From: a virus
Strand: one strand, 5' to 3'
Virus record (IMG/VR): IMGVR_UViG_3300030419_004857
Coordinates: 32,001-96,000 of that record
Length of the DNA: 64,000 bases
Positions within the stretch are counted from its first letter, which is position 1, and each line of letters opens with the position of its first letter. The notes beneath the pieces were generated by a model that was not told where the DNA came from, did not search any database, and saw only the letters and a list, made by a program, of their open reading frames with translations. Positions 16,501 to 47,722 of the stretch are shown one piece after another. The position numbers and the translations under genes are program-made.

Positions 16501-19313
16501 TACCGGCCATGTTAACCCCCGGTGAGTTCGTAGTTAATAGAAAATCTGCCCAAGCTAATATGGGGACTTTAAAAGCTATTAATGCTGGATATTATTCGGG
16601 TGGTGGCGAGGTGCAGTTGCAAATTCCACATCAAATGAGATACTTCGATTCCACTAAAGATCTTACGGAAAAATCTATTTCTTCATGGAATCCTGCCGAA
16701 CATATAAATAAACCCATGCTGGCTCTCTATAAGACACTTTCTGAAGCAAAACAAGGCATGAAAAGTGTTCCATTTTGGCTTAATGATCCCAAGGCGATGG
16801 ATTGGACTCCGGGGGATACACCTACTGAGGGCATTAATGCAATCATAGGTCATATGATGGGGACGGGTGGTCTGAAAAATCTGCCTTCTGAGGAGTTTAA
16901 ACACGCATATATGCAGTGGATAAAGGGGGGGATGCCCGGAAGCGAAAAAGGAGTAGAAGGTGTAATGCTCGGTGGAAATGATCCGAGTTGGTGGAATTAC
17001 AACAAAGAGAGCGGAGCGGTTTGGACGGATGTAAAAGGTCTGCAACGGGACATGCTCGGAGATTCGCATGCACTTTCTGGCAAATGGTTGGAAGCGAGTA
17101 AAGGATTTGGGGTTGGTACTACCCAAATAGTCTCAGGGAGCGTTTCCGGCGGCGTCGGGGGTCGTGGTCATGGTGGGGACACGACCACAGTGTCGACCCA
17201 CGTGATTCGCCGTCGTCCCGGCCAACAGATACCGGGATTGTGGGCGCAGATGAGACTAAATAATGGAGCCAAGATATTCAAGTTGAGCGAAATAGCAAAA
17301 TCAGGAATAAAAGCTGATATGCATAAGTATTCTGATGGTATCTGGAATATTGGCCCCAATATACAAGGACAAAGCACCCAATATACATCCTTGAAGAAGA
17401 GTACGGGTCTACACAACAGTGGCAGGCAGATGGAGGTTGATGGGCCTAATGGAACCTTAAGTCAGGTCTTCGACTGGGGCGCATTTTTAAAATCTTCTTC
17501 AGAAGGGAAAGCGTTTGTAGACAGATATCAACAGTTTGCGAATGATAAGGCAAACTATGTGGGAACCTTAGCGGCTAATTGGCTGGCTGGAAAAAAGGAA
17601 GAAGCCGTGGTGGCTGCTAGTGATCCCAAGTTAGCAAGGGAATTGATACAGGGTCTTTATACTCATATTGATCAGGCGGGGATTGGGAGGGACTTTTCGG
17701 GTCTTAGTGGTGAAATAGACATGGCGAATCTTCCAATTGGCGGCAGAAGGCAGCTAGGTGGGATTGGATCGAGCACATTGAGACTGCCCGATGTCTTAAG
17801 GTGGGCTTTTAACGATACGATATTTGGTGAGAGAGGCATTTTAGCCAAGATGATGCTAGATTCGGACTCGTGGATCAAAAAAGCAAAGAATGATCACGGC
17901 GTTGCCTCTGCCGCGCTTAAACAAATGTATAACCACGAAACTCCCCATCACTTTATTGGACACATATTTGATCAATATGGTTTTTCAGATATAGGAAAAA
18001 GTGTAGAAGAAAAAAGAGCTACAGATAAACAGGCGAAAAAGCAAGACTTTGACGATGCGACCGCAGCGCGAATATCCGATGCTAATATAGCAATCTATGG
18101 CGCTAATGAGGTGGGAAAGGCTTTCATTAAAAAAGCGTTTGGAGACTCAGCATTTAGAAGAATGAGACTGCCGGGTTACGCAAGAACGAACTTGGAACTC
18201 AATAACCGACAAGGAACATTACAGAGCGCACTTGCTAAGCGTGGATTTTGGAATAAGGGTAAACCGGCAGGAGGTGATGCGTCCCCAGCATGGTTCACAG
18301 GAGCCATATTCCCCACTATCATGAACTGGATTGACATTTTAGATAAGACCCAGCAACGTTGGGGAATAATTTCGGCTTCTGATGGTAAATCCTCTTTCGA
18401 ATGGGACGAAGCTAGGGTTTTGGCTAAGATAGAAGAAGAGCGTTTGGAAAATCCGAAGGCTGCTGGGGGTAAGGGTAGCATGTTTAGTGCGGTGAATGGC
18501 TTTATAAGAATGATCACGCCAAGCATGAGTCCATTCGATAAAAAACATCCATTTCAACAAGGGGGCATCTCAGGCAGTATGAAAACCGGTGGGGCGGCGG
18601 AAGAAGCATTTACTAGAGCCATTTTTAGCGGAGCCGCAGGATATTATCAAGCCGTTGCTGCCGCATCAGAAGCTTTGACAAAGACGGTTGACGAAACATA
18701 TCAGTTGACTCCAGAAGGATTAATGAAACAACAAAAGAAGAAGGCCGCGCCAACAAAACCGACTCGACCGAAAAATGTTCTTGGGATGGCTCAAGGAGGA
18801 GCGGTTAGCTCCGCGATGTTCGTTCCTCAAGGCACTGATACCGTTCCCGCCATGTTAACTCCCGGCGAATATGTAATAAGAAAATCCTCTGTGGATGCTT
18901 TGGGGGTTGAGTTCCTAGATTATCTGAATAACTCCAGTCAGAAATCTACCGGAAGAAAATATAGCAGGGGTGGTCAAGTTCAATATCTACAGGAGGGGGG
19001 TGAAAAGACTGCTGGAGGCGCCAAGCTTGATAGTAGTGCTTTTGATGCAAGTGTAAAACACTTTTCTACTATTGTAGACAAACTTAGTAACATAACTTTG
19101 GGCGGATCACTAACGGTTGATGGTACAGTTAATGTGAATGTTAATCTCAATGGTCATGAAGTTCTTGCGGAAGCCAAATCAGAACTTGGTCGAGCGGCTG
19201 GTGATAAGATCGATGGAGGAATCATTTCCATGCTAAAGGCTCACTTCCCTAAGATTCATCCGAAATTATCATACAGTAGTCCAGAAGGTCCGTCGCATCC
19301 GGGGCCACCATAG
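10587..19313 (+). CDS. tail tape measure protein (2908 aa) with embedded cargo regions
   Basis: TP901/PhageMin_Tail-like core (FEKELIKVAQVTG...LAQTG...AIRRAG...TRETAETIATGFRTIFTR), hydrophobic and glycine-zipper segments, long coiled coils, four G.DT(V/I)PA(M/L)L.PGE(F/Y)V motifs. Confidence 0.9.
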   Translation: MSSRFVLTAQLNLQAPDVRRVVREIRRDLSGITVDLRVKNVDKIRRDIDKATKSLKRMDKQTKASATGFAKLSKQMGQAIKNVIRYDIARSVITGFTMALRGGVQEAIKFEKELIKVAQVTGKATSNLSDLTGEITKIATKFGVSSSSLVKTSRVLAQTGMAANEVQKALKALALTTIAPTFDDISNTTETTIAMMRQFGIAAKDVQRELGRINAIAGQFAVESADIGVAIRRAGGAFKSAGGQLMELEALFTSVRATTRETAETIATGFRTIFTRMQRPKTIKFLRSMGIELQNLQGHFIGPYQAVQKLHYALKGLDPRDVRYSQIVEQLGGFRQVSKVIPMIQQFEMSQRALNVAMAGGGSLAKDAAKAQEGLGIQFTKVKEEFTALMRELAMSEGFKAMAKTVLALASALISLASALKPVIPLLTMLMVGKGLSMGVGFMGKGLGKMKGMARGGIVPGRGNGDTVPAMLEPGEFVLRKSAVNAIGAGRLAGINRYNRGGRVRMAAGGTFGPVQQFDSNSARSNIMRKKRRNYNKERGKVFKAGEHAFNPEDNISIPQYSKKSLNAASLLGTIKSEKAANIARTYLRGPFGQGRAYEQLLRGEHRTGARKYMTQAPGTGGTQPFDGMSRDGKFVEAKSVQRFDRHAIGDKALQQALKGSKKSQMGAMTQNKDTIGIWGMKVRAYQDNPKSSREVIKEQLGIWDANEKKRADAAAKKKALRKRGKGATGGVAVGTDTIPALLTPGEFVINRKSAKAFGYGNLGKLNKYAKGGVVGRQRFAGGGEAAGGGGFMKIMGLTMAIDMIVQMTTTMGGASEKTQEFANKLTSVITGMGVLLMAIQSEAAARMAGQVRGMNIPVVSSAMSGKGLGGRFGAGGGWAGGIIDKKAMKGHKIFGKSMSREAFDKGMEARKLAKADVMRAAGSPMKGTVMHTKAVADASKAGTEAFKKTSGAIMKTTKAMRDLALVMGMAGMAVEMYGDHIHEQGKKAIEAGNYEEGRMKMVKGGTAAGAGMGMAIGSILGPFGAAIGGLVGGLYGYWKSVKESAELIERVKFGEQLKHFKNALKAVTEGKASPMAAAASISAGVKALKDRFNTLANAADVDELQGEIKNAVPALQAYIDKVAENVTSFAQLENVVGKDTFRTFSQFSKIPVSKLRKQYTEQIALMQKSKTAQAKMLAVMEQQTRTMLMVRDVTNSFAALEAGLLTFDTALDNLSQSMNNSFTVSAGGSMAPAFKNLESIVDFAGFGKRVDALAGMMEPFSGGMAEQVKSAAVVMRDLPAILLEASNEIGVAGADAGTIIMDKLDQADVGGFLTDSMKRGLSAQIEAFTLGEGGGGKLADMIKKDLDGVIKRLTKGVLTSLKAFQKAAEFFDKANARLAKAFQLRNQIDQKILNTRIKLEKVEADHAARLRRARGQKADPTAQRDMFQRQQAVRAQAAGVAPGGGMNVQGLSQEFNLLKVRIQASNQQLAQQGLDPAQLAGTQNLLDSQKKLIEQNANLKKQFAATKDALVAFADTASRVAEIERSLAEEKKSREAKRGVVSEFTFGTDENRKQLAQSLNTTFAAAAAGTISYVDEKMRPAVGKILDRFKDVELPGLGGKTGGEVKKEMEIDYLESVFGPLTAAQKKQIFERTTAEEQLIKEMQKVQKDALDAQKALLQGLKDDRRQANQEITQLHENLVNGLERVLTEQNKRQMQRELGQEKSTKQSADKTLAVLTKLQADIGGAGVADLSTGQGMEQFRNMMPAMVKAQEAQAEQARIAASGVQAVYESARKDTSMTSTGFEDVFAPMGRGAGMGIDWDMKDLSHAQDLMESYIRDNVKDQEIADAMIMDGKNKMAEAFKAGMDIDDAGVVLEGVFASVAKGQMDQHQKTIDAAHQLAKAQNLTTVQFNNLVTHASQFSTVLKNIPSGANIKDLSDASQTAAGNIQQLDTNIQGANARLGQLGQPGVGGRVQTLAVGGVAFSPKGTDTVPAMLTPGEFVVNRKSAQANMGTLKAINAGYYSGGGEVQLQIPHQMRYFDSTKDLTEKSISSWNPAEHINKPMLALYKTLSEAKQGMKSVPFWLNDPKAMDWTPGDTPTEGINAIIGHMMGTGGLKNLPSEEFKHAYMQWIKGGMPGSEKGVEGVMLGGNDPSWWNYNKESGAVWTDVKGLQRDMLGDSHALSGKWLEASKGFGVGTTQIVSGSVSGGVGGRGHGGDTTTVSTHVIRRRPGQQIPGLWAQMRLNNGAKIFKLSEIAKSGIKADMHKYSDGIWNIGPNIQGQSTQYTSLKKSTGLHNSGRQMEVDGPNGTLSQVFDWGAFLKSSSEGKAFVDRYQQFANDKANYVGTLAANWLAGKKEEAVVAASDPKLARELIQGLYTHIDQAGIGRDFSGLSGEIDMANLPIGGRRQLGGIGSSTLRLPDVLRWAFNDTIFGERGILAKMMLDSDSWIKKAKNDHGVASAALKQMYNHETPHHFIGHIFDQYGFSDIGKSVEEKRATDKQAKKQDFDDATAARISDANIAIYGANEVGKAFIKKAFGDSAFRRMRLPGYARTNLELNNRQGTLQSALAKRGFWNKGKPAGGDASPAWFTGAIFPTIMNWIDILDKTQQRWGIISASDGKSSFEWDEARVLAKIEEERLENPKAAGGKGSMFSAVNGFIRMITPSMSPFDKKHPFQQGGISGSMKTGGAAEEAFTRAIFSGAAGYYQAVAAASEALTKTVDETYQLTPEGLMKQQKKKAAPTKPTRPKNVLGMAQGGAVSSAMFVPQGTDTVPAMLTPGEYVIRKSSVDALGVEFLDYLNNSSQKSTGRKYSRGGQVQYLQEGGEKTAGGAKLDSSAFDASVKHFSTIVDKLSNITLGGSLTVDGTVNVNVNLNGHEVLAEAKSELGRAAGDKIDGGIISMLKAHFPKIHPKLSYSSPEGPSHPGPP
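11943..18975 (+). repeat. four dispersed ~45-60-aa GG..G.DTVPAMLTPGEFV..RKS repeats in the tape measure protein
   Basis: Copies at about 11943-12092, 12765-12905, 16455-16605 and 18786-18975. Confidence 0.9.
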
Positions 19314-19325
19314 TAGGAATAGGAT

Positions 19326-22013
19326 ATGGCTACAATTAATAACAATATAGGATTTTCAATGCTAGCGGGCGTGGAACACGTCGGCACTAAAAGCATTGCG
19401 CCTAGTGGTTTCAATCAAGAGTATGGCTATTGGAGAGGTAATAAACACAGGACGGTGATTGAAAATAAATTCAATCAATTGTATATGGCTTTTGAGGGTA
19501 GTGGAGTAACTGGGGGCGCAACCTACCCACTAACTTGGAACAATGCAGGAGAAACTGTTCCAATATTCACCACCGCAGGCACGGCATATAATTCCAGCGT
19601 AAACAAGGCTGGAAGCCTATCAGCCACGATGGGTAATAATGCTATACAGGAAAGGTCTGTTTTTCTTGGCAAACACCCCTTTATGATTGCTAGCGGTATA
19701 ACTACCGAACCATATTTTTCTGCATACGCTAAAGTCTTGCCCAGTGGTAATATGGCCGATACGGTTATAATGGGGCAACATAATGCAGACCCCGCACAAT
19801 TTATTTTAGGCTGCGATGGTGACGGTAAATTTTATGTCCGATCTGATGGCGTGGTTTCCGGCGTAAATATTCCATACTATGCCAAGAGTTCTAAAAACTT
19901 CGCAGACTACGATTATCCTGTACATATTGTAGGTACGTATGCTTCTGGCGATGGGTTTTTAAAACTTTATGTAAATGGCGATTTCGAAAGTCAATCAGCG
20001 TCATTTACCAGAGACATAACTGACAACAGTGACACATGGGTCTATATTGGTAAAAGACAATTTGCATTTGATCAAAGGCCATTTACCGGATGGTATGATG
20101 AATTGGGTGTTGGTAATGTTAGCATGAAAGAGTCTGATGTCAAGGACTTATATTACAGCACATTTGGTTTAAGTAGATTTATTCGAGACGAAATAAGAGA
20201 AGACGGCGATGCAAGTTCAGGAACTATAAGTAAGTGTGGTTGCACAACTCTTCCAACAAGTGTTCAAGCAGAAATTACTGGAATAACTTTACCGGACGGT
20301 GGAACCGACAAGGGCGCGGTGGGAGAAAAAATTACGCTAACATACGATGCTGCCGCCACTTATACCGACTCTGCCGGTCCTACTACCTACACCGGTATAT
20401 GGGATTCTGGAACTACATCTCTATCTTGTGGGGGCACAGTTAGATTAAGATTGTACTGTGGGGCAAGTAGTAATTTTTATATGGCTCATGATTTTTCTTT
20501 TATGAGCGCCGGTGAAGAGCAGAGATCCAGTCAGGTTTGTAGTCCACTTAATATTGCTTTCGCTCTTGCTGGAGTAACTTCTGGAGGCGGGGGGTGCTGT
20601 AGTGATGACGCCGCTGCTGAAATTGCAGTAACTGTTACCGGAAGCCCAACCCCCCAATCTTTTTCGGGTGCGGATTTTGGCGCTGGCTTTTTGGCAACTG
20701 ATGAGACCTATATTCATTTTGTTGTAGAATCTGGCGTCTTGAGTAGTGACAGAGGAAAATCTAACCGTAATCAAGCTATGGGAAAAACCCTTGGTGGGGC
20801 TTATGACAAAACCCTTTGGGGAACTGTCGCTGAACATGCGATCTCATCCCAGATCACCTTCGATCTAGAACCATCCTACGGAAATTTCCACCAGCTAACA
20901 GACATTTCTGTAGAGGTTTTGGCTGAGCATTTAACCAACCATCCCAGCGGTGCAAAACTATCTGTTTCCATAGACAAAAAAAGTGCTGGCCCCAATGAAT
21001 TAAATTGGTATCCTTTGGGGGTAATGGTTCCGTCTGGCTCTCTTCAAAAGCTAACCTTTACTAAGGATTTAGACGAAACTGTATATCGTTTAGATAGTCG
21101 AAGTTTTAAAGAAGAGTTTGATGATCACCAATTAAAACTAACAGTTTATTATCCTCAATCTGACGAGCCTTACGACGGTGAGTTCAAAATTTATTCCACG
21201 AGGGTAAACTACGGGAGCTTCTCGCGGATAGATACTGCTGTTTCGACTGAACCTACACTTTTCACTAAAGGAGGTTCGCTTGTAAGTGCTAGCGGCAATA
21301 TGCCACTGTTTGTAAACGCAGATATAGCCGCAGGAAGTTTAGAGCTATTTATGGATGCCACGCTACCTCAGTTGCTTGGCGGGTCTGTAATGTCGGCTGA
21401 TGCTAGTGTAATTACGAATAAAGATATTTCGTTATTTACTCAAGGAGGAATGATAACTCTTGAGACCCCAATGTATATCTTGGGTTCAACCGAGGGGAAA
21501 ACTGGCTTTGTGGAAGCTTTTGGTTCGATAGGTCTAGAGACCAAGGGTGGCAGACACGTATTTCCTCACGCTCAAGCAACAACATCTCTGTTCATTAAAG
21601 ACGTTGTTTCGGGAAGTGGTTTGGTCTCTGATAGCATGAACCTATTCTTGAAGCCCGCGCCTTCAATATTGACAAGCGGGACTATGAACATGTCTGTAAG
21701 GGGCGATTTCAATAAGACTATACCACTGTTCCTAAAGGGGGCTGAAGCCTCTACAGCAACAGCCACCCTAATACTAGAGGGGCCAGAACAGATCTCAACC
21801 AGCGGAACAATGAATTTATTTATCAAGCAAGCAGACCCTCTTTTCCTAAGCACTTCTCAGTTGTCTTCTAACGCGGGGGTTCTGACCAACAATAATACTT
21901 CTCTACATATTTCCGGTCTTGGGTTCCCCAGCGGAACCATCCCATTGTCAATGCCAAATACTATTGGTAAACCGAACAATTCAATAACGTTAAACATAGA
22001 GGGCTATGAATAA
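19326..22013 (+). CDS. LamG/concanavalin A-like domain virion protein with Cys-containing insert and C-terminal beta-repeats
   Basis: HIVGTY.....LKLYVNG...VYIGK...FTGWYDELGV is the LamG-like signature; many (S/T)(M/I)(N/P)LF(I/L).G repeats in the last ~260 aa. Confidence 0.7.
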   Translation: MATINNNIGFSMLAGVEHVGTKSIAPSGFNQEYGYWRGNKHRTVIENKFNQLYMAFEGSGVTGGATYPLTWNNAGETVPIFTTAGTAYNSSVNKAGSLSATMGNNAIQERSVFLGKHPFMIASGITTEPYFSAYAKVLPSGNMADTVIMGQHNADPAQFILGCDGDGKFYVRSDGVVSGVNIPYYAKSSKNFADYDYPVHIVGTYASGDGFLKLYVNGDFESQSASFTRDITDNSDTWVYIGKRQFAFDQRPFTGWYDELGVGNVSMKESDVKDLYYSTFGLSRFIRDEIREDGDASSGTISKCGCTTLPTSVQAEITGITLPDGGTDKGAVGEKITLTYDAAATYTDSAGPTTYTGIWDSGTTSLSCGGTVRLRLYCGASSNFYMAHDFSFMSAGEEQRSSQVCSPLNIAFALAGVTSGGGGCCSDDAAAEIAVTVTGSPTPQSFSGADFGAGFLATDETYIHFVVESGVLSSDRGKSNRNQAMGKTLGGAYDKTLWGTVAEHAISSQITFDLEPSYGNFHQLTDISVEVLAEHLTNHPSGAKLSVSIDKKSAGPNELNWYPLGVMVPSGSLQKLTFTKDLDETVYRLDSRSFKEEFDDHQLKLTVYYPQSDEPYDGEFKIYSTRVNYGSFSRIDTAVSTEPTLFTKGGSLVSASGNMPLFVNADIAAGSLELFMDATLPQLLGGSVMSADASVITNKDISLFTQGGMITLETPMYILGSTEGKTGFVEAFGSIGLETKGGRHVFPHAQATTSLFIKDVVSGSGLVSDSMNLFLKPAPSILTSGTMNMSVRGDFNKTIPLFLKGAEASTATATLILEGPEQISTSGTMNLFIKQADPLFLSTSQLSSNAGVLTNNNTSLHISGLGFPSGTIPLSMPNTIGKPNNSITLNIEGYE

Positions 22014-23974
22014 TGTCAGTTTCATTTCACCCCAATGCAGCAGCCGGTGCTTCGTATTTAATACCAACCCCCTTTGTCAGTGTGGGTAAAACTTTTGACA
22101 AGTCTGGTTCTGGAGAAATTTTAGGGGTAAGATATGCTATCACCTTAACCGGAACTCTTATTTACGATAGAGGATCACCCAACTCATCTGGGGGTTTCTC
22201 TTCCTCGGACGCTACCGAAACCATTGCGGCTGATGCAGAATATGCATCCATACAAGCTAAACAAAAAGCGATAATGAATTTGTTTAGTAAGAAAAACGAA
22301 GGTGGATTGTTACATGTGGATAATCCAAAGGCTGGCGCTGTCGGTTTTAAATGTTATCCCAGAATTATATCTGTTGATATGCCGACTCATGATCCGGGTA
22401 GGCCCACCATGGCGGCATATACTATAGTTTTAGAGGCGGATAAATTAATTGGCCCAACAGGCGTATTAAATGATGAGGATGATTGGGAAAGATTAAATAA
22501 GTGGCTAGTTTCTTCGGCAAGTGAAAGTTGGACTATAAATGAGAATGAGGGCGGAAAAGCTATCACTATGGCTTCTGGCCCTATCACCAAAGTGGAAAAA
22601 ACCTACACTCTTACCAGAAATATTAGCGCTACCGGCAAAGGCAAATTTGATACTAGTACAGCAGCGGCAGATGGGCTTAAGGGTGATGACTTTAGTACTA
22701 AATACGTGGAAGATGTGGTTACTTCCTCTGGAGGAGCAGAACCAACATACACAACAGTCGCAAAAGATGGGCAGGCTTGGCAACAAGCTAGAGGCTTTGT
22801 CTATGACATTCTGAAGTATGGAAATGTCTTTTTGGTAGGGGAGCAAGCTAACAGTACCAATACCATGGATGCTAATGGTATTAATTTACCTGACGGATAC
22901 GATGGGTACAACTATGTAAGAAGTGAAACGGTGGACGAGCTTGGCGGCACTTTTAGTGCTACCGAAAGTTGGATATTGCTTCCAGATGGTCATAATAAAG
23001 TAACTGAAACTGTTGAAAGTTCTCTTAGTCAATCTCAAGATACCGGAATAATAAAGGTGTCAATAAATGGCACAATACAAGGAGTGGGAACTCAAAATAA
23101 GGATGCTACTTTACCCGGCACTGAGGCTGCGGATACCACTGTAGATTTTGATGACAAGTATGCCAACGCCACAGCTAGACTAACCGGAATAGAAGGTAAG
23201 TTATACCTGACGGCTCAGGATTTATTACGGGATAATGCTGCGTATAGTAGCACGGTTCTTAACCCAACCCCATTATCTAAAACCGTTGGCAGGAATCCCT
23301 ATACAGGGACTATCACATATAGTTTAGAGTTTGACAATAGGCCCACATTTGCTATACCGGGTGTCAGAAGTGAAACCATTACAGTCAATGACACATATCC
23401 GGGCTATGTAGCAGCCACTACTCAGGTTATAGGCAGGGCTTTAGGTCCGGTTCTACAAAGTATAGGAACTCAAACTGTGTGGGAGCGCTCTCTTAGTATA
23501 TCATGCGTTGTAGACACTTCCGGTGGTTATTGTACGGGGCTAACAGATGATACTGGGGCGGCAGTGACCCAACCTACCAATCAGACTGATTGCGAGGCCG
23601 ATCCCGGTGGAACAGGAACTGCTGGTACTTGGTCTCCGGGTGGGAATAATGCATTGGGGAATCCAGAGGTTGATTTTTATGCTTCTTCTATGGCGGCTAA
23701 GCCCAGTCATGTACAAACCCAAAGAGAGGCGATAATAAAAATTATTGATCAATTCAATCCCGCTAAGGCGGGGACGCATGATGGCACACCCACTGGCACT
23801 CCTCTCATAAATGTGTTTTTTACAAAGTCGCCTTCAGAAACATGGAATCCTAGAACTGGAGCTTGGACATTTGATGTTTCGTGGACTTATGAGCCATATC
23901 TAACGTATCAATTCATACCTCTCGGTACTCCCCAAACTAATTCGGCAGCACCATATCCGAAGACGATTATTTAA
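22013..23974 (+). CDS. putative tail-tip (distal tail-like) structural protein
   Basis: Beta-rich, S/T-rich, repeated SESW/TESW/SETW strands; downstream of the tape measure gene. Confidence 0.5.
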   Translation: MSVSFHPNAAAGASYLIPTPFVSVGKTFDKSGSGEILGVRYAITLTGTLIYDRGSPNSSGGFSSSDATETIAADAEYASIQAKQKAIMNLFSKKNEGGLLHVDNPKAGAVGFKCYPRIISVDMPTHDPGRPTMAAYTIVLEADKLIGPTGVLNDEDDWERLNKWLVSSASESWTINENEGGKAITMASGPITKVEKTYTLTRNISATGKGKFDTSTAAADGLKGDDFSTKYVEDVVTSSGGAEPTYTTVAKDGQAWQQARGFVYDILKYGNVFLVGEQANSTNTMDANGINLPDGYDGYNYVRSETVDELGGTFSATESWILLPDGHNKVTETVESSLSQSQDTGIIKVSINGTIQGVGTQNKDATLPGTEAADTTVDFDDKYANATARLTGIEGKLYLTAQDLLRDNAAYSSTVLNPTPLSKTVGRNPYTGTITYSLEFDNRPTFAIPGVRSETITVNDTYPGYVAATTQVIGRALGPVLQSIGTQTVWERSLSISCVVDTSGGYCTGLTDDTGAAVTQPTNQTDCEADPGGTGTAGTWSPGGNNALGNPEVDFYASSMAAKPSHVQTQREAIIKIIDQFNPAKAGTHDGTPTGTPLINVFFTKSPSETWNPRTGAWTFDVSWTYEPYLTYQFIPLGTPQTNSAAPYPKTII

Positions 23975-27718: not shown

Positions 27719-29566
27719 ATGCCTCAAGAACCACAAAATACAGATACTCAGAGGGAAAGGTCCGACGAGAATCATGTAATGCTGGGCGGAAAGCTGGTCA
27801 GAAAGACCTACATTTTGTCGGATGATCAAGGTAACCCTCTTCAGGGAATGGATAAAGATGGCGTAACTGGCAATTTGGACAGGGGGGACAAGTCTCCAGT
27901 TATTGATACAGCCACTTTGGGTTCTTTTAAAGGAAATTTTCCTCAGATTATAGAACAAGATCCTAACGATCCCACCAGAACAATTCTTAGCGATAAGCAT
28001 TGGAATGATCAAGCTGGCATGAGTATGGACGGGTTGCTTATTCCGTATTCAGCCGAGTTCGTTACGACGGGTCCACAGGGATCTCTAACAAATGTTCCTA
28101 TTCCTAGCGGTGACCTCCCGTCTTTTTGGAAGCCTGTTGGTATTGGTAATGAATCTCTTATAGATTGGTGGAACGTTGGCTCGGGTGTTATTACGTCTGC
28201 CACATTAAATCCTCTGGCCAGTGGTCATAATATAGAGTATGTTGTTCGAAACTCTAACATGACAGACCTATCTGTCAGAAGCGAGGTGGGAGGCTATGCT
28301 AAATCAGCTAGACCTCTGGGTAAGGTAGCAGAAATTACCAGTCAGAACACGGACGACGCTAATCAAGCAGCTAGACCCATTGGGCTGCGTGGTCCTATGG
28401 TGGTTTCTGGGTGGGGGTATGATATTGATGGTCGTCCAGTCCCCAATGCAAAATATGATGCCGACAGAAGAGTCCCATATAGCTCTGGTGGTGGTGGAGA
28501 TGTAGATAATGTCGGCCTACCGGTTGAATTACAGCATAGTAAAACACGGGCACATTTGAACTTTTTACCACATCATCTTCAAAGAACAGATAGATGGAAA
28601 AGTGGGCCAGTGGATCTTAGATGGGATAGAGAAAGAAAGGTCTGGGTTGGCGGCAGATTTAACGGTGTCTATCTCAGTAAAGCTGTAAAATGTATTTTAC
28701 CAAAGGCGGGGTTAGACGGAAAAAACTCTTTCAACTTTGGTATAAACGATAATGTAACTAATCCCGGCAGACTTTATAGAAATCCATGTCCTCAAACTAG
28801 TTGCACATATGAAACATATTTTAATACTAGTACATATTATCCCGATATAGAAATATATGACCCAGAAGACAAGGAGTGGTGTGGAAATTGTGAAGTGGTA
28901 AAAATAGGAACCGGAACCGCTGCAAAATATGCTGTTGAATGTTCACAATTTTCTACCACCTGTACTCCCTTTTACGACGCTGTTATTGTAAGATCTGTGG
29001 ATCACACGGTAAGAGGAAGAAACGTATATTCAGATTGTGGTGATAAATTTAGTAAAGTTTCCGGTGGAAGCCCGCAAAGCAGAAGAATGGGAGATCCATG
29101 TCATAGATTTGGTGGCAGCGCCTTAGCGCAGAATAGTTTGGGTCCAGAACCATTACATGCTATTATGCCCCCCGTTGCCACAGGAGTTAATGCTAAGTAT
29201 TCTGAAGCTGCTAAGGCAATTTTGTATCAAAAAATACTGATTGAAAATCCTTTAAATCAAGGTTTAATGCTAGGAGACTCTTTTCTTAGTTATGATACTG
29301 GTAGAAGAGTAGCTATATCTTATTCTAAATCAGATAGAGCAACAGGTTGTTCAGGTGGAAATCCAATAACGGTTCAAGAAATATTACCCGTACATGTTAT
29401 ATTGCAAGCAGAGTTTTTCAGTGCCGAAGTGCTGACTCACGCCAATTGTTCACAGGGAGAGTTTAGTAATTGTACGAAAAAACTATTTTTCCAAGGTATG
29501 TCTACACTGGAAGACTGCGGGCCGGATGATGACTACCCGCAAACAGCAATAACAACGGGTGTATAG
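27719..29566 (+). CDS. putative tail-tip protein with Cys-rich C-terminal half
   Basis: Operon position; GPVDLRWDRERKVW segment; many Cys in the C-terminal half. Confidence 0.5.
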   Translation: MPQEPQNTDTQRERSDENHVMLGGKLVRKTYILSDDQGNPLQGMDKDGVTGNLDRGDKSPVIDTATLGSFKGNFPQIIEQDPNDPTRTILSDKHWNDQAGMSMDGLLIPYSAEFVTTGPQGSLTNVPIPSGDLPSFWKPVGIGNESLIDWWNVGSGVITSATLNPLASGHNIEYVVRNSNMTDLSVRSEVGGYAKSARPLGKVAEITSQNTDDANQAARPIGLRGPMVVSGWGYDIDGRPVPNAKYDADRRVPYSSGGGGDVDNVGLPVELQHSKTRAHLNFLPHHLQRTDRWKSGPVDLRWDRERKVWVGGRFNGVYLSKAVKCILPKAGLDGKNSFNFGINDNVTNPGRLYRNPCPQTSCTYETYFNTSTYYPDIEIYDPEDKEWCGNCEVVKIGTGTAAKYAVECSQFSTTCTPFYDAVIVRSVDHTVRGRNVYSDCGDKFSKVSGGSPQSRRMGDPCHRFGGSALAQNSLGPEPLHAIMPPVATGVNAKYSEAAKAILYQKILIENPLNQGLMLGDSFLSYDTGRRVAISYSKSDRATGCSGGNPITVQEILPVHVILQAEFFSAEVLTHANCSQGEFSNCTKKLFFQGMSTLEDCGPDDDYPQTAITTGV

Positions 29567-29574
29567 GAACAGTA

Positions 29575-32500
29575 ATGGCTATAGGCGACAATTTTGACAC
29601 AACTCCTCCGGGGTATACAAACCAGACCACTGGAAGGAAGTCTGGCCATGGCGTAATTAGTCAGTATCCGGGTCATTATACCGACGACAATCAAGGACAT
29701 CCTTGTAATATAGGATGTGGCTGTAAATCCGCTTGTAGATCTGGAACTGAGTCCGATCCCGCCGCTAGATGCACACTACCCCCAGAGCTAACTATATATA
29801 TTACTAAAGCTGGAAGTAGAACTTCGGCTAGACAGAACATCTCCTCAAACCAATCCACTGAGATAGTACACCTAGTTTATACTAAAGCTTTGGGCGGGGT
29901 TGGCGCTTGGAGAGGTAGAAAATGTTGTCAATTTGACGCAAATGGCAACGAGCTTTGCGATCCATGTGATGTTACTACCGACAAAGATGGAAATAAAACA
30001 GATTGTTCATATAGTGGTCAAGAAGGGACAACACGTAATCGTCCGATATTCCACCCGACGACCGGACAACTGATTGGCCATAGCACTGGTCCCCCCGGAG
30101 GCACTAGAAGAAATGATCTAAATATGCCTGACGGAGATCCGGCTGGTGGTAGATGTCTTCAAGATGGAGACACTCCAAATCAGTTTATGGCTTGTAGGTC
30201 TTATACAGATGCCAATTTCAACAATCTTTATGGACAAGTGAATTTTGAACAGTGTCATAACGGATTTTGTATTGATGGTGCTGGAAATGTTTTGGGTTAT
30301 GATAAAAGAGCTTGTTGTGCTGGTGGATTTACTTGGAAATATCCCCGCTGCTTAGACAGTTCTGGAAATCCGGTTGGTGGTAGCTGTGCAGGAGATGCGT
30401 TAGATGGTTCGGATTGTAGTACTAAATCCGAGTGTGATTGTACGTTAGCAGAAGGCTGCGCGTGGGTGGAGGAATTTGATGAATGGGAATGTTCTGCGCA
30501 GTATAAATCTAGCGGATACACATGGTCTCATAGCTGGATTACTGACCCCTCATCCGCAGATGTAAACGAATGTTGTGGTGGTCAGATTATTTCTGACAAG
30601 GCCCCATCTCATCAACCTGCCGTATCTGGTGGTGGAGGTGAAGGATCTTTAGAGAAAGCAAAGGGGCAGCTTACCTGTATTACTCCTTATAAGGAATATA
30701 TTCTTATACCCGGCGGCGCGCCTAACTTTCAATATGGGTGTAAAGCTGTAGACAATCCAACTCCAGAAGTTAGAAATGATCTTGGAAAAGCTGGCTCGGC
30801 AGGCGTATTTACTTTAATTATAAGAGAGTGTAACTATAACGATAATTGTCTTGATTCACCTAGCGCGCAAGATGATAGTTTGATAGGAAAAGAGACCGTT
30901 TTATATATACCAATTGATCAAATGATTAATTGTTCTGATTTTCGTCTTCCATTTGATCAAAGAACTGCTGAGTTAGGAAATCCAGCAGGGTTTTATCCAG
31001 AAGACGTAAACTGGTGTAATGATCCAGACGAAAATCGTGATGGTACTGCGGACATTAACGGAGAAGGATGCTCTCGTTTTTTGTATCAGGAAAGCGGCGT
31101 GATTCGAGATCGTACTATATATGAGAATGGGGCGCATCAGCTACATCAATTAAACTTGCAGGCCCAGCCATTCAAAGCAACAGAAAGTAACCAGTTAACG
31201 GCTAAAAGTTTAGATCAAGCAAGAGCAGATCAAGCAGCCCACTATGGCTGTGTGTGCGGGGCTGGAGTAGATTGCCCAGACTGTTTAATGGACATAAATC
31301 ACGGATTGGCATATTGGTTTGAAAATGATTTTGTTGGCACTGATTCGGCTTGTTCACAAGCCCGAACTCAAATTAAAGGTATTATTGATGGAGCGGCTAG
31401 TGCGAGAGAGGTATGGAGTTGTCATGATGATTGTGGTGACCCGTCTGGATACTTACATTATTGGTCTGGAGGATTAGAAGGTATAATTTATAGTTCGTCT
31501 CTGGTTGGAGACAGCGGTCTTTATACCGGAAGATTGGGCTATTGGGGCGCTACTGGATTATATCCTGCAAACATATATACTCCATATCAGCCTGAAAATA
31601 GTACTCCACCCATTAGCCACACTTTGGATAATTGTTATGGCTCTCATAGAGGGGGAAGATCTGGAGTTGTGGAGTTTGCCAGTAATACTTCTCCCATAGT
31701 GATTAAATCTACCAATCATGGTCTTGTGGACGATGATTTTATCAGCGTCAAGGGGGTTCTGGGCAATTTTAGCGCCAACACCTTGACGCTCGCAGAATGG
31801 AAGGCTATTTCTTGGCAGGATAAGCTGGGAGATGGTTGTGATGGGGAAGAGTGTCCTAAAATCTTTAATCCTCCGGGGCTTTGCGAAACAGCACCGTTTG
31901 ACACCAGCGGACTAGCAAGCGGATCAATAAGTCTACCTTTATGGGTTGTGGAGATTGTAGATAAAGACCATTTCCTCCTAAAGGACTGCAATGGAGATTA
32001 TAGCGATGGAACAATAGATTTTGCGCCCCAGTGCGATTCCACCTTCACCTGTGTAGATTATCTTGCCAACACAGTTGAAGTATGCCCTTGTAATACGCTT
32101 GACAATGTTCCAGATGTGATTTCATCAACCGCCGTTGATCTGTTAACAGATGAAGCTACATGTAAAACTTACGGTTATTGTCAGATTGTTTCGGGGTATC
32201 CAGACCCAAACACTATGATGACCAAGGACGACTGCATAACCCTAGCTAAGAAATATTCTCTATACGACGGAGGCGGAACTGCGCTTAATCCCGCCTTCCC
32301 CGGATCTTGTACAGATGGATGTAATGGAAGCTCCGTTGCTGCATCAGATTATCAAGACTGTATAGCTAAAACCAATAGTGGTTGTCCACCCAATGGGTGG
32401 GCAAATCCAAATTATCATTCCTGCGTGTCAGTTGTTGACAATGTTGCAAACTTTGATGCGTGTTGGTCAGGACACGATTGGAAGCCTGCCTCTACTGCCG

Positions 32501-35500
32501 ATCCATATAAGGATAAGGTTGGTAACTGGCCTGCCTGTCCATTTACCGGAGAGTGGACCCTTTGCGACCAGCTTAACCATGACACATGTACAATTAGAGA
32601 AATGTCTGGATCAAGAGATGGAACAGATCAATATCGTTTAGGATATGATCATACCTCTAAGATTAGGGAAGATCTTGCTAATGGTTACTATGTACAAATA
32701 GATCAAACTGAAGTTTGTCCAGTTTGTTGTGATCATTACATGCCAAAATCTTTAACGGCTACTATTAGCAGTATGTCTTCTCAATCATTAAATGATAGGT
32801 ATTGTCAGACTGATTGTAATGGAAATCTCCCGCCTGTAGTAGCAACAGGATATAAAGTTTTTCCCGGTGCTGATGAACCATATGTTTGTGAACCAGATCA
32901 GAATGGAAATTATGGTTTGGGTTGCGAAGATGGATACACGGGAGGGACATACTGTTGTGATTGTGTGAGCACTCCTGAAGGAGCCATTGCAGGATGTTTT
33001 GATTGTGGTAAAACCTATAGGATAGATTCTGATTGGCAAAAACTTGACGAATTGCCCGGCGCTGATGAACAGTTTAAAACCTGTTGTAGTTGTGATTGTG
33101 AGCCGGGAGATGTTAAAAAACCATCGTGTGAAAAGGATTTTCCCACGTTAGATGACTTCTTTGCTTGCAATGGCTGTTGTGGAGAACATGACGGAAAGCA
33201 AACCGATTGTGAAAATAATGGATGTGCCTATAATGCCTTAGACGGAAGTTGTAACTTGAAAGATGGCTGTGGTGGAACATGTGGTAATTTGTCATGTGAA
33301 GCTGATGACGCTGGTGGTGGTGGAGAGTGTAGAGCTACATACGGATCTTGTTCTGATATTACAACAGAATCAGCTTGTGATGGTGCAAGCGGGTGTAGCT
33401 GGAGTGAAGTTACGCCGGGGTCGGGATATTATACATGCGGTGGAAACATAAATAATGACATTTGTAATACTTATGATGACCCCGACGACTGTAATGATGA
33501 TGACTACTGCAACTTTGTAAATTTCACTTCTAACACTGGCACATGTAAATGTACCCCCTGTACTGGTTTTCCCGGTAGTAGAGATTTGAAGTGTGAAGAT
33601 CCTTTTGTGTGTGGCGGTGGAAACGGTGGAAATAGAGGCGGATGTACAGACACAAATTCTGCCTATTGTTCGGGGGGAATGGGGTTAGATAATCCAGATG
33701 GACAGGGCTGTGGAGACCCCGGCATTCCGGGCGCTGTAGCTGATTGCGTAATGCCCAAAAGAGAATATCATGAGGGATGTCCCGGTTTAGGCACAATTTC
33801 TTTTGATATGGAGTATAATGGGTCGTCGTGGGTTTCTGACTGGGTTGCAATGAATGATGTGGGTAAAAAACAATGTAAGCTCACTAACTATCCTGATTTT
33901 TGTAATGATGTTTTTTGTATAAAAAATGGAAAGGTTGTTATTCCAGCCGGGGGGGCATCTTGTGAGAGCGTTGGTGGGGAACTTAAGCCGGGGTGTCCTA
34001 ATAAGCCAATCGTAGGTGCTGACTGTGGCGCTTGTAGAGAAAAACAGTTTGATGGATATAATTGTGGGCCAGACGCTGATGACTGGCCTACAGGACAAGA
34101 TAATCATTATATCAGAACTGAAATGTATTGTGGAGATCTTGAGGATCAAGAGGCTCTTGTTAGCCATGCTGGCCCGCCTTATGGTGGATTGGTTTCTGAT
34201 GAACAATATCAGGGCGGATCAATGCATTTAAATGCGTGGATAACGACTTGTAAATATCCGTCTTGCGGACCCGGCAATTCTCCTTGTCCCGAGTCTGGGT
34301 GTTTTGGTGACTGTTCTGCCGCGCAAGATGGCTCTGTTCAACTTGTTACAACTGCCCACATACCCGGTGTAAATTGTGGAGCAAGATCGCCATGTGTAGG
34401 GTGTTGTGCATTTATGGAGCCTTTCTGCACGGTTACAGCGGGTGGGGGTTGGCTTTTCGACACAGAAGATTGCCCCCCTCAGACAAAAGGTTGTGGAATT
34501 CCTTGCGATGGGTCTTGTGAAGATGAATTGTTAACTTTGGTCGAATGCAAGGCTAGCGGGTTTGTTAAAAGTCCAAAAGCCCCGATGATATTTAATGTTC
34601 GGTTTGTTGATCATGGAGGAGAAGACCCAACAACTGGAAAAGTTCCGGGCAAGTTAATTGGAATGACTAACGCTCCTGCCTGTAATTGGCCAGCAGGCAC
34701 AAGTGTTAGTTTGGGTGTTTCAGATAGATTAATAGCAGAAACCGGAGGAGGAAGTGACGCTACGCCAATGTATGGTACAACTACTGATATCCTAGCCCTT
34801 CCTCCAAATTACCCACAGGGCACAGTACTGACTCAGGAGATTCCTATAAGCGAATATGACAATAACCTTATAGAACTGAACGTTGAAGATGTTAGAGCCT
34901 TCATGTCATATTCAGGAGCGTTAGATAGACATCTGTGGAGAAATACTAATACCGAACCGTTCCCGTATGGTAGATCCCCTTGGCCAGTCCTCCACCAAGC
35001 CGATACAGGAAACCCACAGGCTCTGAATAACCTTGAAAGAATAGGCAAAAAGATGCTCAGTGGGAGTGCCGCATCTTATGATCCGCAGAATAAAATTGTC
35101 AATATTGAAAACGTTTATGACGGAAACGGAGTTTTCTCTCATATCCTAGTTACTACAGACAGAGATCATGATCTTATTACAGGCGAAAAGATTATATTAG
35201 ATAGGGCTGAATGCTATGCGGCATCTTGCAGTTGCCCCGCTTATGATCCTGTTTCTGATGTTGGGGGATGCAGAAGAGTCGGGACGGGAACGGTGATAAT
35301 TGACGAGGATACTGAAGAAGCTGCTACCTCAGTTAAAAATGTTGACCAAGTCGGATGTCAGGCTCTGGGTGGGACATGGACTCCGTCAACGAATAAACTA
35401 ATATCGTGTCCGAAGGAGTGCGAGGTAAATGGGTGGTTTGATGAGGCTCCATGTGATCCGAATAAGGATAACAAACCGTGTAATTCTCCCAATTGTAGAA

Positions 35501-36162
35501 AGCCCCCCGGAGAACAACAAAAGGTGTGTTACGGCTGCGCTGGCTCTGTTGATGAAACCGCCATTGTTGCTGGTGTAGAAGAAGATCCTATAACCGATGA
35601 TCTCAACGGTTCCTATGTTGTCAAATTCATCTCCAGCAGATCATTTTCTATCCATTATGAGAAATATTTAGATTTTGATCAATACGGTTCGCAAGCTATT
35701 GGCTATGATCCTACAACCAATAACACTACCGGATTGGCTGCAAATACACTCAATGATTCCGATACGTGGAATGATAATGTAAAAGGAACACCGTGGGGCC
35801 ATGAAATTATGGTTGGTCCAGCGGTTGGTCCATTTGTAGATAAAGTAATTGATTGGTCTGGCACAGAGACTGCTGGAGGTGCTAGGTGGACACGTCACGC
35901 AGGAACTTTTAATGTCGTATTGCAAAATTTCGAGTATGTTGATAAACCGGGCACTGCATGCAGACAGGGTAATAGTCAGAATCCGGTAAATCTAGAATGG
36001 GATCTATTTTTTGAAAATGGATGTTGTAATAATAGACAACCTCCAAGAAACTTCGGATGTGAAGATAAGTGCTATCAGGGTGGAGGGCCAATGATAATCG
36101 ATTGGGTGGATAAAGATCAAGATAGAGGAAAAGCTGCTATTCATATAGCTGTAACAGAATAA
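29575..36162 (+). CDS. giant cysteine-rich virion-module protein (2195 aa), possible adhesin or receptor-binding fibre
   Basis: Very high Cys/Gly/Asp content; C..GG.W and C......C....GC.W repeats; two modules like the E1-FCCH-type beta domain of phage tail proteins (SNTSPIVIKSTNHGLVDDDFISV; ILVTTDRDHDLITGEKI). Confidence 0.65.
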   Translation: MAIGDNFDTTPPGYTNQTTGRKSGHGVISQYPGHYTDDNQGHPCNIGCGCKSACRSGTESDPAARCTLPPELTIYITKAGSRTSARQNISSNQSTEIVHLVYTKALGGVGAWRGRKCCQFDANGNELCDPCDVTTDKDGNKTDCSYSGQEGTTRNRPIFHPTTGQLIGHSTGPPGGTRRNDLNMPDGDPAGGRCLQDGDTPNQFMACRSYTDANFNNLYGQVNFEQCHNGFCIDGAGNVLGYDKRACCAGGFTWKYPRCLDSSGNPVGGSCAGDALDGSDCSTKSECDCTLAEGCAWVEEFDEWECSAQYKSSGYTWSHSWITDPSSADVNECCGGQIISDKAPSHQPAVSGGGGEGSLEKAKGQLTCITPYKEYILIPGGAPNFQYGCKAVDNPTPEVRNDLGKAGSAGVFTLIIRECNYNDNCLDSPSAQDDSLIGKETVLYIPIDQMINCSDFRLPFDQRTAELGNPAGFYPEDVNWCNDPDENRDGTADINGEGCSRFLYQESGVIRDRTIYENGAHQLHQLNLQAQPFKATESNQLTAKSLDQARADQAAHYGCVCGAGVDCPDCLMDINHGLAYWFENDFVGTDSACSQARTQIKGIIDGAASAREVWSCHDDCGDPSGYLHYWSGGLEGIIYSSSLVGDSGLYTGRLGYWGATGLYPANIYTPYQPENSTPPISHTLDNCYGSHRGGRSGVVEFASNTSPIVIKSTNHGLVDDDFISVKGVLGNFSANTLTLAEWKAISWQDKLGDGCDGEECPKIFNPPGLCETAPFDTSGLASGSISLPLWVVEIVDKDHFLLKDCNGDYSDGTIDFAPQCDSTFTCVDYLANTVEVCPCNTLDNVPDVISSTAVDLLTDEATCKTYGYCQIVSGYPDPNTMMTKDDCITLAKKYSLYDGGGTALNPAFPGSCTDGCNGSSVAASDYQDCIAKTNSGCPPNGWANPNYHSCVSVVDNVANFDACWSGHDWKPASTADPYKDKVGNWPACPFTGEWTLCDQLNHDTCTIREMSGSRDGTDQYRLGYDHTSKIREDLANGYYVQIDQTEVCPVCCDHYMPKSLTATISSMSSQSLNDRYCQTDCNGNLPPVVATGYKVFPGADEPYVCEPDQNGNYGLGCEDGYTGGTYCCDCVSTPEGAIAGCFDCGKTYRIDSDWQKLDELPGADEQFKTCCSCDCEPGDVKKPSCEKDFPTLDDFFACNGCCGEHDGKQTDCENNGCAYNALDGSCNLKDGCGGTCGNLSCEADDAGGGGECRATYGSCSDITTESACDGASGCSWSEVTPGSGYYTCGGNINNDICNTYDDPDDCNDDDYCNFVNFTSNTGTCKCTPCTGFPGSRDLKCEDPFVCGGGNGGNRGGCTDTNSAYCSGGMGLDNPDGQGCGDPGIPGAVADCVMPKREYHEGCPGLGTISFDMEYNGSSWVSDWVAMNDVGKKQCKLTNYPDFCNDVFCIKNGKVVIPAGGASCESVGGELKPGCPNKPIVGADCGACREKQFDGYNCGPDADDWPTGQDNHYIRTEMYCGDLEDQEALVSHAGPPYGGLVSDEQYQGGSMHLNAWITTCKYPSCGPGNSPCPESGCFGDCSAAQDGSVQLVTTAHIPGVNCGARSPCVGCCAFMEPFCTVTAGGGWLFDTEDCPPQTKGCGIPCDGSCEDELLTLVECKASGFVKSPKAPMIFNVRFVDHGGEDPTTGKVPGKLIGMTNAPACNWPAGTSVSLGVSDRLIAETGGGSDATPMYGTTTDILALPPNYPQGTVLTQEIPISEYDNNLIELNVEDVRAFMSYSGALDRHLWRNTNTEPFPYGRSPWPVLHQADTGNPQALNNLERIGKKMLSGSAASYDPQNKIVNIENVYDGNGVFSHILVTTDRDHDLITGEKIILDRAECYAASCSCPAYDPVSDVGGCRRVGTGTVIIDEDTEEAATSVKNVDQVGCQALGGTWTPSTNKLISCPKECEVNGWFDEAPCDPNKDNKPCNSPNCRKPPGEQQKVCYGCAGSVDETAIVAGVEEDPITDDLNGSYVVKFISSRSFSIHYEKYLDFDQYGSQAIGYDPTTNNTTGLAANTLNDSDTWNDNVKGTPWGHEIMVGPAVGPFVDKVIDWSGTETAGGARWTRHAGTFNVVLQNFEYVDKPGTACRQGNSQNPVNLEWDLFFENGCCNNRQPPRNFGCEDKCYQGGGPMIIDWVDKDQDRGKAAIHIAVTE

Positions 36163-36176
36163 AGAGAGGAATTAAT

Positions 36177-36677
36177 ATGTCTTGTAAAGGATGTGGTGGA
36201 AATCAGCCAACTATAATACCAAGAGGGCTTCCTCAAGGTCCAACTGGCGAAACTACTCAGTGTCAATGCAATTTTCCAGATGGTCAGAATACAATCTTTT
36301 GTGACAGGCATAAGTGTACAAAAACTAAACCCTTGTATCATTTATGTAAATATAGAGAAGACTATTATCAATTGTGGGAGAGCGGACACGGACCAATGCA
36401 AACGGTATCTAAATACCAAGTTGAAGAAGAGCGTCCAACTCCAAAACCAGAAAAACCAAAGAAAACCACTGGGTTTTTTAAAGATGAAAATGAAGATTCA
36501 AAAGCTCAAGGTCTTGGAGATACTATTGCCAAAATTACCGAAGCTACTGGCATTAAGACAGTCGTAGATGCGGTTAGCGAAGCTACAGGAAGAGACTGTG
36601 GTTGCAGACAAAGGCAAAATAAATTGAACGAGATGTTTCCCTATAAACAAAAGAAAACAAAAGGGTTTTTTCAGTAA
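36177..36677 (+). CDS. small Cys-rich protein with C-terminal GLGD...CGC..RQ..LN module
   Basis: N-terminal CKGC, CQC, C..H.C; C-terminal GLGDTIAKITEATGIK...DCGCRQRQNKLN, a module I recognise from aquatic phage hypothetical proteins. Confidence 0.6.
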   Translation: MSCKGCGGNQPTIIPRGLPQGPTGETTQCQCNFPDGQNTIFCDRHKCTKTKPLYHLCKYREDYYQLWESGHGPMQTVSKYQVEEERPTPKPEKPKKTTGFFKDENEDSKAQGLGDTIAKITEATGIKTVVDAVSEATGRDCGCRQRQNKLNEMFPYKQKKTKGFFQ

Positions 36678-38758: not shown

Positions 38759-39543
38759 GATTCTATTTCTATTAACCTCTTTGTCGGTGGAGGAAATTCT
38801 TCTTCGATTTTCTTTAATTCAACAATGATAGAATTCAATACATCTCTCATGTTCTTAGCGGACAAATTTTTGATCAAGTTTTTGACTCGTATAATAGCAA
38901 AACCTCTGTTGATCAACAATCCGGCCTTTTGCGCATCTGCTCGAATGTGTCTTTGCAAATTTGCTTCTCCCCAGATTGGAAGAAAGTGCGCGGGGCCGTC
39001 TATTTCGATTGCCGTTCTTAACACAGGAAGGAAAAGATCCACCTCAAGTTTGTCATTCGCTAGCAGACCTCTCTTGTGAAATATAGTTTCGTAGCCAGCT
39101 TTTGTCAATCCCTCATAGACAAATTTTTCAATTTTGGACCCCTCTTTGCTGGCTTTTCGCACGGCTTCTGCCGCAGCCCGCCTCAAGTTATCCTTTTCCT
39201 GATCGCTCATTTGCTCCCATTGATATTTAGAGAGTTCGGAACGTCTGCCTCTTTCTTCATCGTCCATATTGTCCCAGAAGTTTGACATGCCATTGCTGAT
39301 TGCCACCTTTTCGGACTCTGTTCTCTGCTTTCCTTTAGTTGGATGTTCGTGTCTACCAGTACTAATCGCAACGGTCTGTGCCTGACTCTTAGTTCTTAAA
39401 TCCACTCCGAGAGACTTTAAGGCTCTTCTGATTTTGTTAGGATATGTGCTAAGCTCTTGAGCAATTTCATATGTGCTCTTCTGCTTAGTAATATACTGTT
39501 CGATTAGAAATTCTTTATGCTTCTGTGCAAATCTGCTGCTCAT
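38755..39543 (-). CDS. HTH + NUMOD3-like + Vsr/DUF559-type endonuclease (homing endonuclease-like)
   Basis: STYEIAQEL...IRRAL HTH; KGKQRTESEKVAIS; SKIE...EVDLFLP...AIEIDGPAH...D..K...L...GF.IIRV. Confidence 0.7.
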   Translation of the reverse strand: MSSRFAQKHKEFLIEQYITKQKSTYEIAQELSTYPNKIRRALKSLGVDLRTKSQAQTVAISTGRHEHPTKGKQRTESEKVAISNGMSNFWDNMDDEERGRRSELSKYQWEQMSDQEKDNLRRAAAEAVRKASKEGSKIEKFVYEGLTKAGYETIFHKRGLLANDKLEVDLFLPVLRTAIEIDGPAHFLPIWGEANLQRHIRADAQKAGLLINRGFAIIRVKNLIKNLSAKNMRDVLNSIIVELKKIEEEFPPPTKRLIEIES

Positions 39544-41863: not shown

Positions 41864-41873
41864 GATTCATTCC

Positions 41874-47721: not shown

Positions 47722-47722
47722 G

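Follow-up and report, generated by a model that had tools for sequence, protein, structure and literature searches.

How could a phage protein probably made in the reducing cytoplasm come to carry 146 cysteines, and what might they hold together? This question is raised by an open reading frame (ORF) at positions 29575..36162 (+ strand) of a 64,000-nucleotide stretch of viral DNA, hereafter called the window, which covers positions 32,001 to 96,000 of the 161,265-bp IMG/VR record IMGVR_UViG_3300030419_004857. The ORF is the last large gene of a tail module and encodes a 2195-aa protein of 235 kDa and pI 4.4 with a conserved acidic N-terminal peptide; we refer to it as the giant protein. An earlier note on this DNA had described it as an extremely Cys-rich adhesin, either disulfide stapled or metal loaded. 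The computed composition agrees, since Cys makes up 6.7% of the residues (146/2195), compared with a mean of 1.4% in the other ORFs of the genome, 0.59% in the structural block upstream and none at all in the 2908-aa tape measure protein. The four sequence motifs quoted in that note were located at aa 1202, 1259, 1297, and 1928. Cys is not dense throughout, as had been claimed, because aa 1701-1800 hold a single one and aa 2001-2100 none, and the supposed repeats, far from a tandem array, turned out to be inserted modules of degenerate sequence. A shadow or artefact ORF was ruled out by a conserved protein family, a ribosome-binding site, and synteny. The giant protein family is real and unusual.

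Cys was the most conserved residue of the protein. In a 58%-identical homologue, 142 of 145 aligned Cys sites were kept, and across 27 distant homologues Cys identity was 75%, versus 52% for Trp and 15-41% for other residues. The earlier note had staked its reading beforehand on conservation of Cys among homologues, so the reading survives on this point. Gain and loss of Cys were examined in 13 disjoint pairs of relatives by counting Cys-changing indels of at least 15 aa, with Cys down-weighted in the alignment. The change was even in 32 of 34 indels (p 3.5e-8 versus 50:50), with steps of two Cys in 20, four in 7, six in 4, and three or five in none; for seven other residues, used as a parity control, it was even in 63/195. 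Moreover, distant cysteines disappeared together: C66 and C453 were lost jointly on one branch and C1175 and C1340 were absent from the same four taxa, each a pattern common to no other query Cys, and C755 and C760 were lost jointly in five taxa. The CC, CxC, and CxxC motifs emphasized earlier do exist (9, 9, and 11, respectively) but not above chance, as local shuffles gave about 11 of each. Family-wide, CxxC occurred 225 times versus 250 expected, CxC was depleted (143 versus 253 expected), and the CxxCH heme motif was absent both there and in the giant protein. A heme protein was ruled out by the lack of CxxCH, and membership of the Zn-finger, Fe-S, or multiheme class found no backing in the absence of both a CxxC excess and any CxxCH. 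Because of the Cys conservation, the even-numbered gain and loss, the joint loss of distant pairs, and the motif counts, we favor disulfides for most of the 146 Cys, in line with the stapling proposed earlier.

The commonest inserted unit is a hairpin of 25-30 aa with two Cys and a Trp but no conserved His. A degenerate copy of this mobile module was recognized at 35356..35388 (+ strand; E 0.05, module alignment). The number of hairpins does not account for the total Cys across homologues (rho -0.1). Of 151 planctomycete-phylum genomes searched, one also encodes this hairpin, in a loop of a vWA protein with a signal peptide; because it was found in this one genome only, a host origin of the module is not established. 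In some relatives it has spread to other tail genes (L005:7517-9988, L099:2356-4638), with 35 Cys in a gene where 13 are usual.

Could the cysteines mostly bind metal instead? Under this explanation they would hold Zn, Fe-S, or Cu, as in the Fe-S and Zn sites of siphophage tail tips, and the resulting fibre, loaded with metal, could fold completely in the reducing cytoplasm with no oxidation step required. Invariant clusters such as aa 1048-1054 and 1601-1611 do resemble ligand clusters, a HesB/IscA gene is present in the genome, and four or six Cys were gained or lost in 11/34 indels. However, CxxC is no commoner than chance predicts, CxC falls short of it, and CxxCH is missing; the modal unit carries two Cys in a module lacking a conserved His, three- and five-Cys indels do not occur, and His makes up 1.8% of the protein and is mostly unconserved. 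The metal-loaded branch of the earlier proposal is therefore disfavored for most Cys, and we regard it as quite unlikely. A few metal sites possibly remain, together with one calcium-type loop, a Cys-flanked DxNxDG at aa 481-499 (31015..31071, + strand) which, judged from the alignment, is a candidate calcium site.

What kind of scaffold would such disulfides staple? Profiles of the whole giant protein and of its halves found no match in Pfam, PHROGs, NCBIfam, PDB sequences, or GenBank phages, and no Pfam family appeared even at E 0.1. EGF, laminin, and furin-like repeats were found neither in the query at that threshold nor in three homologues, so that the likeness to eukaryotic extracellular proteins noted before holds for composition but not for any EGF-like or other Pfam domain. 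At low confidence, the protein looks like a set of nested barrels inflated by Cys-stapled inserts. This reading draws on a compact 138-aa insert (20229..20642, + strand) in the LamG-domain tail gene (19326-22013), recognized by motif order and fold, which shows the motif order found, spread out, across aa 1048-2195 of the giant protein. Folded alone, this compact copy gave an eight-stranded up-and-down barrel (predicted local distance difference test, pLDDT, 74; predicted template modelling score 0.72), with one of five models confident. In the model of aa 1030-2195 the pLDDT was 39, yet all six ten-residue blocks above 70 lay on predicted strands. Structural alignment of model residues 20-1166 returned the same eight-stranded barrels as the compact copy did (6d0t, 106 residues aligned with both models), and that of residues 637-1091 returned RIFT-type barrels, among them those of lambda J and the E1 FCCH domain. 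All Z-scores were below 8, and the fold matches therefore name an arrangement and not a relative.

Segments of the compact barrel, chosen by eye, fell on the predicted sites when they were fitted to the C-terminal half blind and with their order kept (score 89 versus 48.5 ± 5.3); a second copy of the compact barrel, taken from a distant phage, recovered three of seven sites. When the two halves were compared by hhalign, and when the compact barrel was aligned with free gaps, the results were collinear but not significant, and barrel homology therefore rests on the folds and on the ordered-segment test with its eye-chosen segments. On this basis, aa 1048-2195 (32716..36159, + strand) would form a discontinuous eight-stranded up-and-down barrel carrying about 1000 aa of nested inserts, with strands near aa 1059, 1407, 1418, 1511, 1551, 2139, and 2186. 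Nested within it, aa 1666-2120 (34570..35934, + strand) may form a RIFT-type barrel interrupted by Cys-rich inserts (Z 5-6.7, including E1 FCCH 4p22 and lambda J 8iyk, on the low-confidence model). In the N-terminal half, aa 44-460 (29704..30954, + strand) appear to open like the C-terminal barrel over its first three strands, which the ordered-segment test placed at aa 68, 96, and 111 (z 4.7), and this unit contains the jointly lost C66 and C453. The best-conserved block, aa 696-806 (31660..31992, + strand), probably forms a first small barrel of RIFT/FCCH type, with a Cys insert that contains C755 and C760, as suggested by conservation and a weak collinear match to the second barrel that is not significant. 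A search of the whole library with the compact barrel returned four close relatives and two spurious matches (P0034, P0035). The compact barrel was not found in 401 planctomycete-phylum genomes searched, and the second copy gave only chance matches in 301. Foldseek against viral models yielded nothing for the half-protein or the compact-barrel model, and the ESM Atlas returned no usable feature match for the compact barrel, only generic structural rows.

Where, then, might the protein act? The gene order runs from the tape measure gene (10587..19313, + strand), which fixes the tail-module context, through the LamG-domain gene and three unnamed genes to the giant gene, which thus lies distal (3′) to the genes for the tape measure and the tip. 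It is followed by a Cys/His protein of 166 aa, another gene of 236 aa, and a strand switch. Genes around the giant gene are spaced 8-17 bp apart. No sheath gene was found, and the tail is probably non-contractile. A protein search gave 29 clusters of giant-protein homologues (2189-3811 aa, 116-197 Cys), and IMG/VR gave 16 loci with the giant gene, up to 4101 aa and 212 Cys, so that the family spans 2189-4101 aa and 116-212 Cys. Gene order was identical at every locus examined, with the giant gene always closing the tail module. In one record (L077:1-6472), the giant gene occurs as two ORFs with the last 218 aa apart, either a natural split or an assembly error. Several record names in the family, as we read them, point to open-ocean viromes.

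The gene just upstream (27719..29566, + strand), encoding a conserved 615-aa probable tip adaptor, anchors a wider phage group with 190 matches. In this group, the products of the slot of the giant gene range from a few hundred to about 3300 aa; they are highly variable, often Cys rich, and usually followed next by a small Cys protein. Judged by this pattern, the slot behaves as a receptor-binding slot. An anchor-plus-variable pattern is likewise present within the family, with a conserved N-terminal peptide versus exchangeable distal parts, as seen in the varying lengths and in a swapped slot. This slot, aa 826-985 (32050..32529, + strand), is Cys rich in the query, is occupied by an M23-like domain in eight relatives (P0012:1410-1600 and seven others), and is deleted in three. 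The M23-like insert, which the query lacks, matched the C-terminal half of the Pfam model above the cut-off; it is circularly permuted, in that HxH (intact in 6/8) precedes an H-x-D motif by about 90 aa, and hints that the host wall is contacted. We infer that the giant protein is an adhesin from the place of its gene, the variability of the slot, and the M23-like payload in relatives; though a member of no named family, it seems to work like a receptor-binding tail-tip protein. A non-virion protein, released at lysis or shown on the infected cell as a decoy, matrix, or superinfection shield, would fit the lack of a match to known tail-fibre families, the acidic surface-protein-like composition, and the lack of visible trimeric fibre motifs in the giant protein. 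It would sit badly with the missing export signal, with the invariant place among the closely spaced genes of the tail operon, and with the occurrence of the same barrel and hairpin modules in neighboring tail genes; we consider it very unlikely.

If most cysteines are paired, when and how are they oxidized? As the earlier note had stated, the giant protein has no signal peptide, nor has it a membrane helix: the highest 19-residue hydropathy was 1.27 and that of the acidic, non-hydrophobic N-terminus was -0.81, and no signal peptide-like start was seen among 30 family N-termini listed. A Sec-exported fibre was ruled out on this ground. The genome search for Erv/ALR, thioredoxin, and Dsb genes that had been proposed turned up a thioredoxin but no Erv, DsbB, or VKOR. 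The PF04777 model and a motif scan for Erv were negative in the genome and three relatives, with the limit that the model had no positive control above the cut-off and a divergent copy could escape it; DsbB and VKOR were not found in the phage genome. The thioredoxin lacks a signal peptide, has a WCPHC site, and is encoded at genome positions 108716-109042, outside the window and about 40 kb from the giant gene. A thioredoxin was present in 4/5 relatives (of three read, two have CPHC and one CPFC), and in two relatives a second one lies adjacent, CGPC beside CPHC. The active site of DsbA is likewise CPHC, and thioredoxins altered in this way have served to promote disulfide formation in the cytoplasm (PMC3526497). 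The gene adjoins two trypsin-like proteases with hydrophobic N-termini (genome 108716-112830; L010:13716-17830). Also in the genome is a class II ribonucleotide reductase, an enzyme that needs a thioredoxin-type reductant, and service to this enzyme may more simply explain the CPHC thioredoxin. The 166-aa Cys/His protein (36177..36677, + strand) comes after the giant gene in all relatives whose DNA continues past it and is a candidate folding chaperone or metal-binding helper. In one phage group this small partner is fused to DUF6171 and lies beside the giant gene on the opposite strand (L110:17329-17784, L120:11905-12342). Elsewhere in the genome, a 352-aa protein (genome 30244-31302; L009:3244-4302) has an N-terminus like the partner's Cys motif fused to a weak phosphoribosyltransferase-like domain.

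These genes leave room for the same virion protein to have its disulfides made and shuffled in the cytoplasm by a non-Erv phage route, through the CPHC thioredoxin, the Cys/His partner, or both. The DsbA-type site and the tight linkage of the partner gene to the giant gene speak for it; the demand of the ribonucleotide reductase, the distance of the thioredoxin gene, and the missing electron sink (Erv, DsbB, or VKOR) speak against it, and we hold this route to be unlikely. A bolder version, in which an Erv-free pathway of CPHC thioredoxin and Cys/His partner builds a tip protein of 235-450 kDa with 60-100 disulfides that perhaps takes part in thiol-disulfide exchange with the Cys-rich planctomycete wall during attachment or entry, strikes us as rather improbable. 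Of the two options offered earlier, a dedicated oxidative route or oxidation after lysis, the latter is the more economical because no dedicated route was found.

The explanation we prefer, and consider moderately probable as a whole, is a host-binding scaffold of the tail tip, stapled by disulfides and oxidized mostly after assembly or lysis. The giant protein would be the outermost, host-contacting part of the tip of this marine phage and would consist of two related halves, each a small beta-barrel with loops inflated by nested insertions. Up to about 70 disulfides within the chain would take up most of its Cys: local loops would be stapled by short two-Cys hairpins, and large inserts would be fastened to the barrel at their ends by the long-range pairs C66-C453 and C1175-C1340. 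Such stapling would allow growth from 2200 to 4100 aa and swaps of payload without unfolding. The chain, which has no signal peptide, would be made in the cytoplasm, fold around its barrels, perhaps aided by the small downstream partner, and join the tip; its prepositioned thiols would oxidize at a late stage of infection or, after lysis, in oxic seawater. Several points weigh against this explanation. The half-protein model has a low mean pLDDT and every fold match a Z below 8; modelling covered the C-terminal half (aa 1030-2195), and the N-terminal barrel rests on sequence segments. The four- and six-Cys indels fit metal sites too, and correct pairing of about 70 disulfides, unaided by an isomerase, is demanding. 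The giant protein and the upstream tip genes match no named tail family, the host assignment rests on one host-type gene, and the disulfides and the virion location are themselves what we infer.

That host-type gene is DUF1501, whose best matches are overwhelmingly Planctomycetota (top, a Pirellulales genome at 49% identity), and because of this the host is probably a planctomycete. DUF1501 was also found in one of two close relatives tested. Among its closest matches are two contigs, of 64 and 153 kb (L022, L049), from a SAR202-labelled genome; they may be mis-binned phage contigs. In the phage genome, the HesB/IscA Fe-S assembly gene adjoins DUF1501 (genome 122172-122507). Within the tail module, the earlier note had ascribed similar Cys patches to three neighbors. 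The patch of the 27719 gene is real and conserved (13 Cys, 11 of them, all in its C-terminal half, invariant among 13 homologues), but the 22013 gene (653 aa) has 4 Cys (0.6%) and the 23985 gene 10 (0.8%); the patch of the former is a single two-Cys hairpin module (23519..23641, + strand; E 0.03). Just behind the tail module, a minus-strand run of glycosyltransferase-like and sugar-epimerase genes (window 39515-51511), with epimerases in the same place in relatives, could serve glycosylation of virion proteins. A MotA/ExbB-like membrane gene with two membrane-anchored neighbors lies at genome 11191-12921 (L008:4191-5921). A promoter and terminator scan gave results at chance level.

Disulfide-bonded virions are known from the fibres and wedge of Pam3 (PMC9942802), the sheath and baseplate of Milano (PMC10811340), and the tail tube protein gp39 of NBD2 (PMC13576161), and disulfides in phage virions have been described as relatively rare (PMC13576161); in the parts of these three papers that we consulted, the route of disulfide formation is not stated. 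As in the Agrobacterium phage Milano, the cyanophage Pam3, and the siphophage NBD2, cytoplasm-made structural proteins, including baseplate or receptor-binding parts, would carry disulfides here. The scale differs, with 2.1% Cys in Milano structural proteins (PMC13576161) versus 6.7% in the giant chain. In the parts consulted, the bonds in those phages are few per protein and often between subunits, whereas those of the giant protein appear mostly intrachain and modular; no sequence homology to it was detected in any of the three. Like lambda gpJ and the central-fibre and tail-tip proteins of siphophages, the giant protein is the product of a large variable gene ending the tail module, its nested RIFT-type barrel has weak fold matches (Z 5.0-5.4) in the Chi tail tip, the JBD30 baseplate, and lambda J 490-567, and some relatives share with siphophage tail-tip proteins a peptidoglycan-hydrolase-like domain. 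Unlike gpJ, it has no hidden Markov model match, is nested and not built as beads on a string, and has far more Cys. The predicted eight-stranded barrel shares its arrangement with bacterial surface binding proteins such as TbpB, NHBA, HpuA, and haemophores (OmpW/NspA topology), with Z up to 6.3 for the compact copy and 7.4 for the inflated one; at Z below 8 and about 10% identity, this is a common arrangement that gives no evidence of homology or ligand, and the barrel of the giant protein differs in being putatively Cys stapled and in carrying about 1000 aa of inserts.

Vaccinia, a cytoplasmic eukaryotic DNA virus, has an Erv/ALR disulfide pathway consisting of E10R, A2.5L, and G4L. The phage resembles it in its putative disulfide-bonded virion proteins in a reducing cytoplasm and in having a thioredoxin-fold gene, but differs in that no Erv domain was found in its genome or three relatives. 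The planctomycete cell wall is Cys rich, with YTV proteins in the envelope (PMC8567305), and the two-Cys hairpin in a secreted protein of one planctomycete-search genome recalls this setting; unlike YTV proteins, the giant protein has neither YTV repeats nor an export signal.

The novelty lies in the scale, in the predicted nested build, and in the quantitative support for Cys turnover by pairs where no recognizable oxidase was found. A family with 116-212 Cys per chain, no export signal, and no recognizable oxidase is an extreme test of the timing and route of protein oxidation in phages. The even-parity rule suggests that a host-binding protein can grow by self-stapling two-Cys hairpins and by whole domains inserted in barrel loops. 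The giant protein is also the probable host-recognition protein for a widespread group of uncultured marine phages that probably infect planctomycetes.

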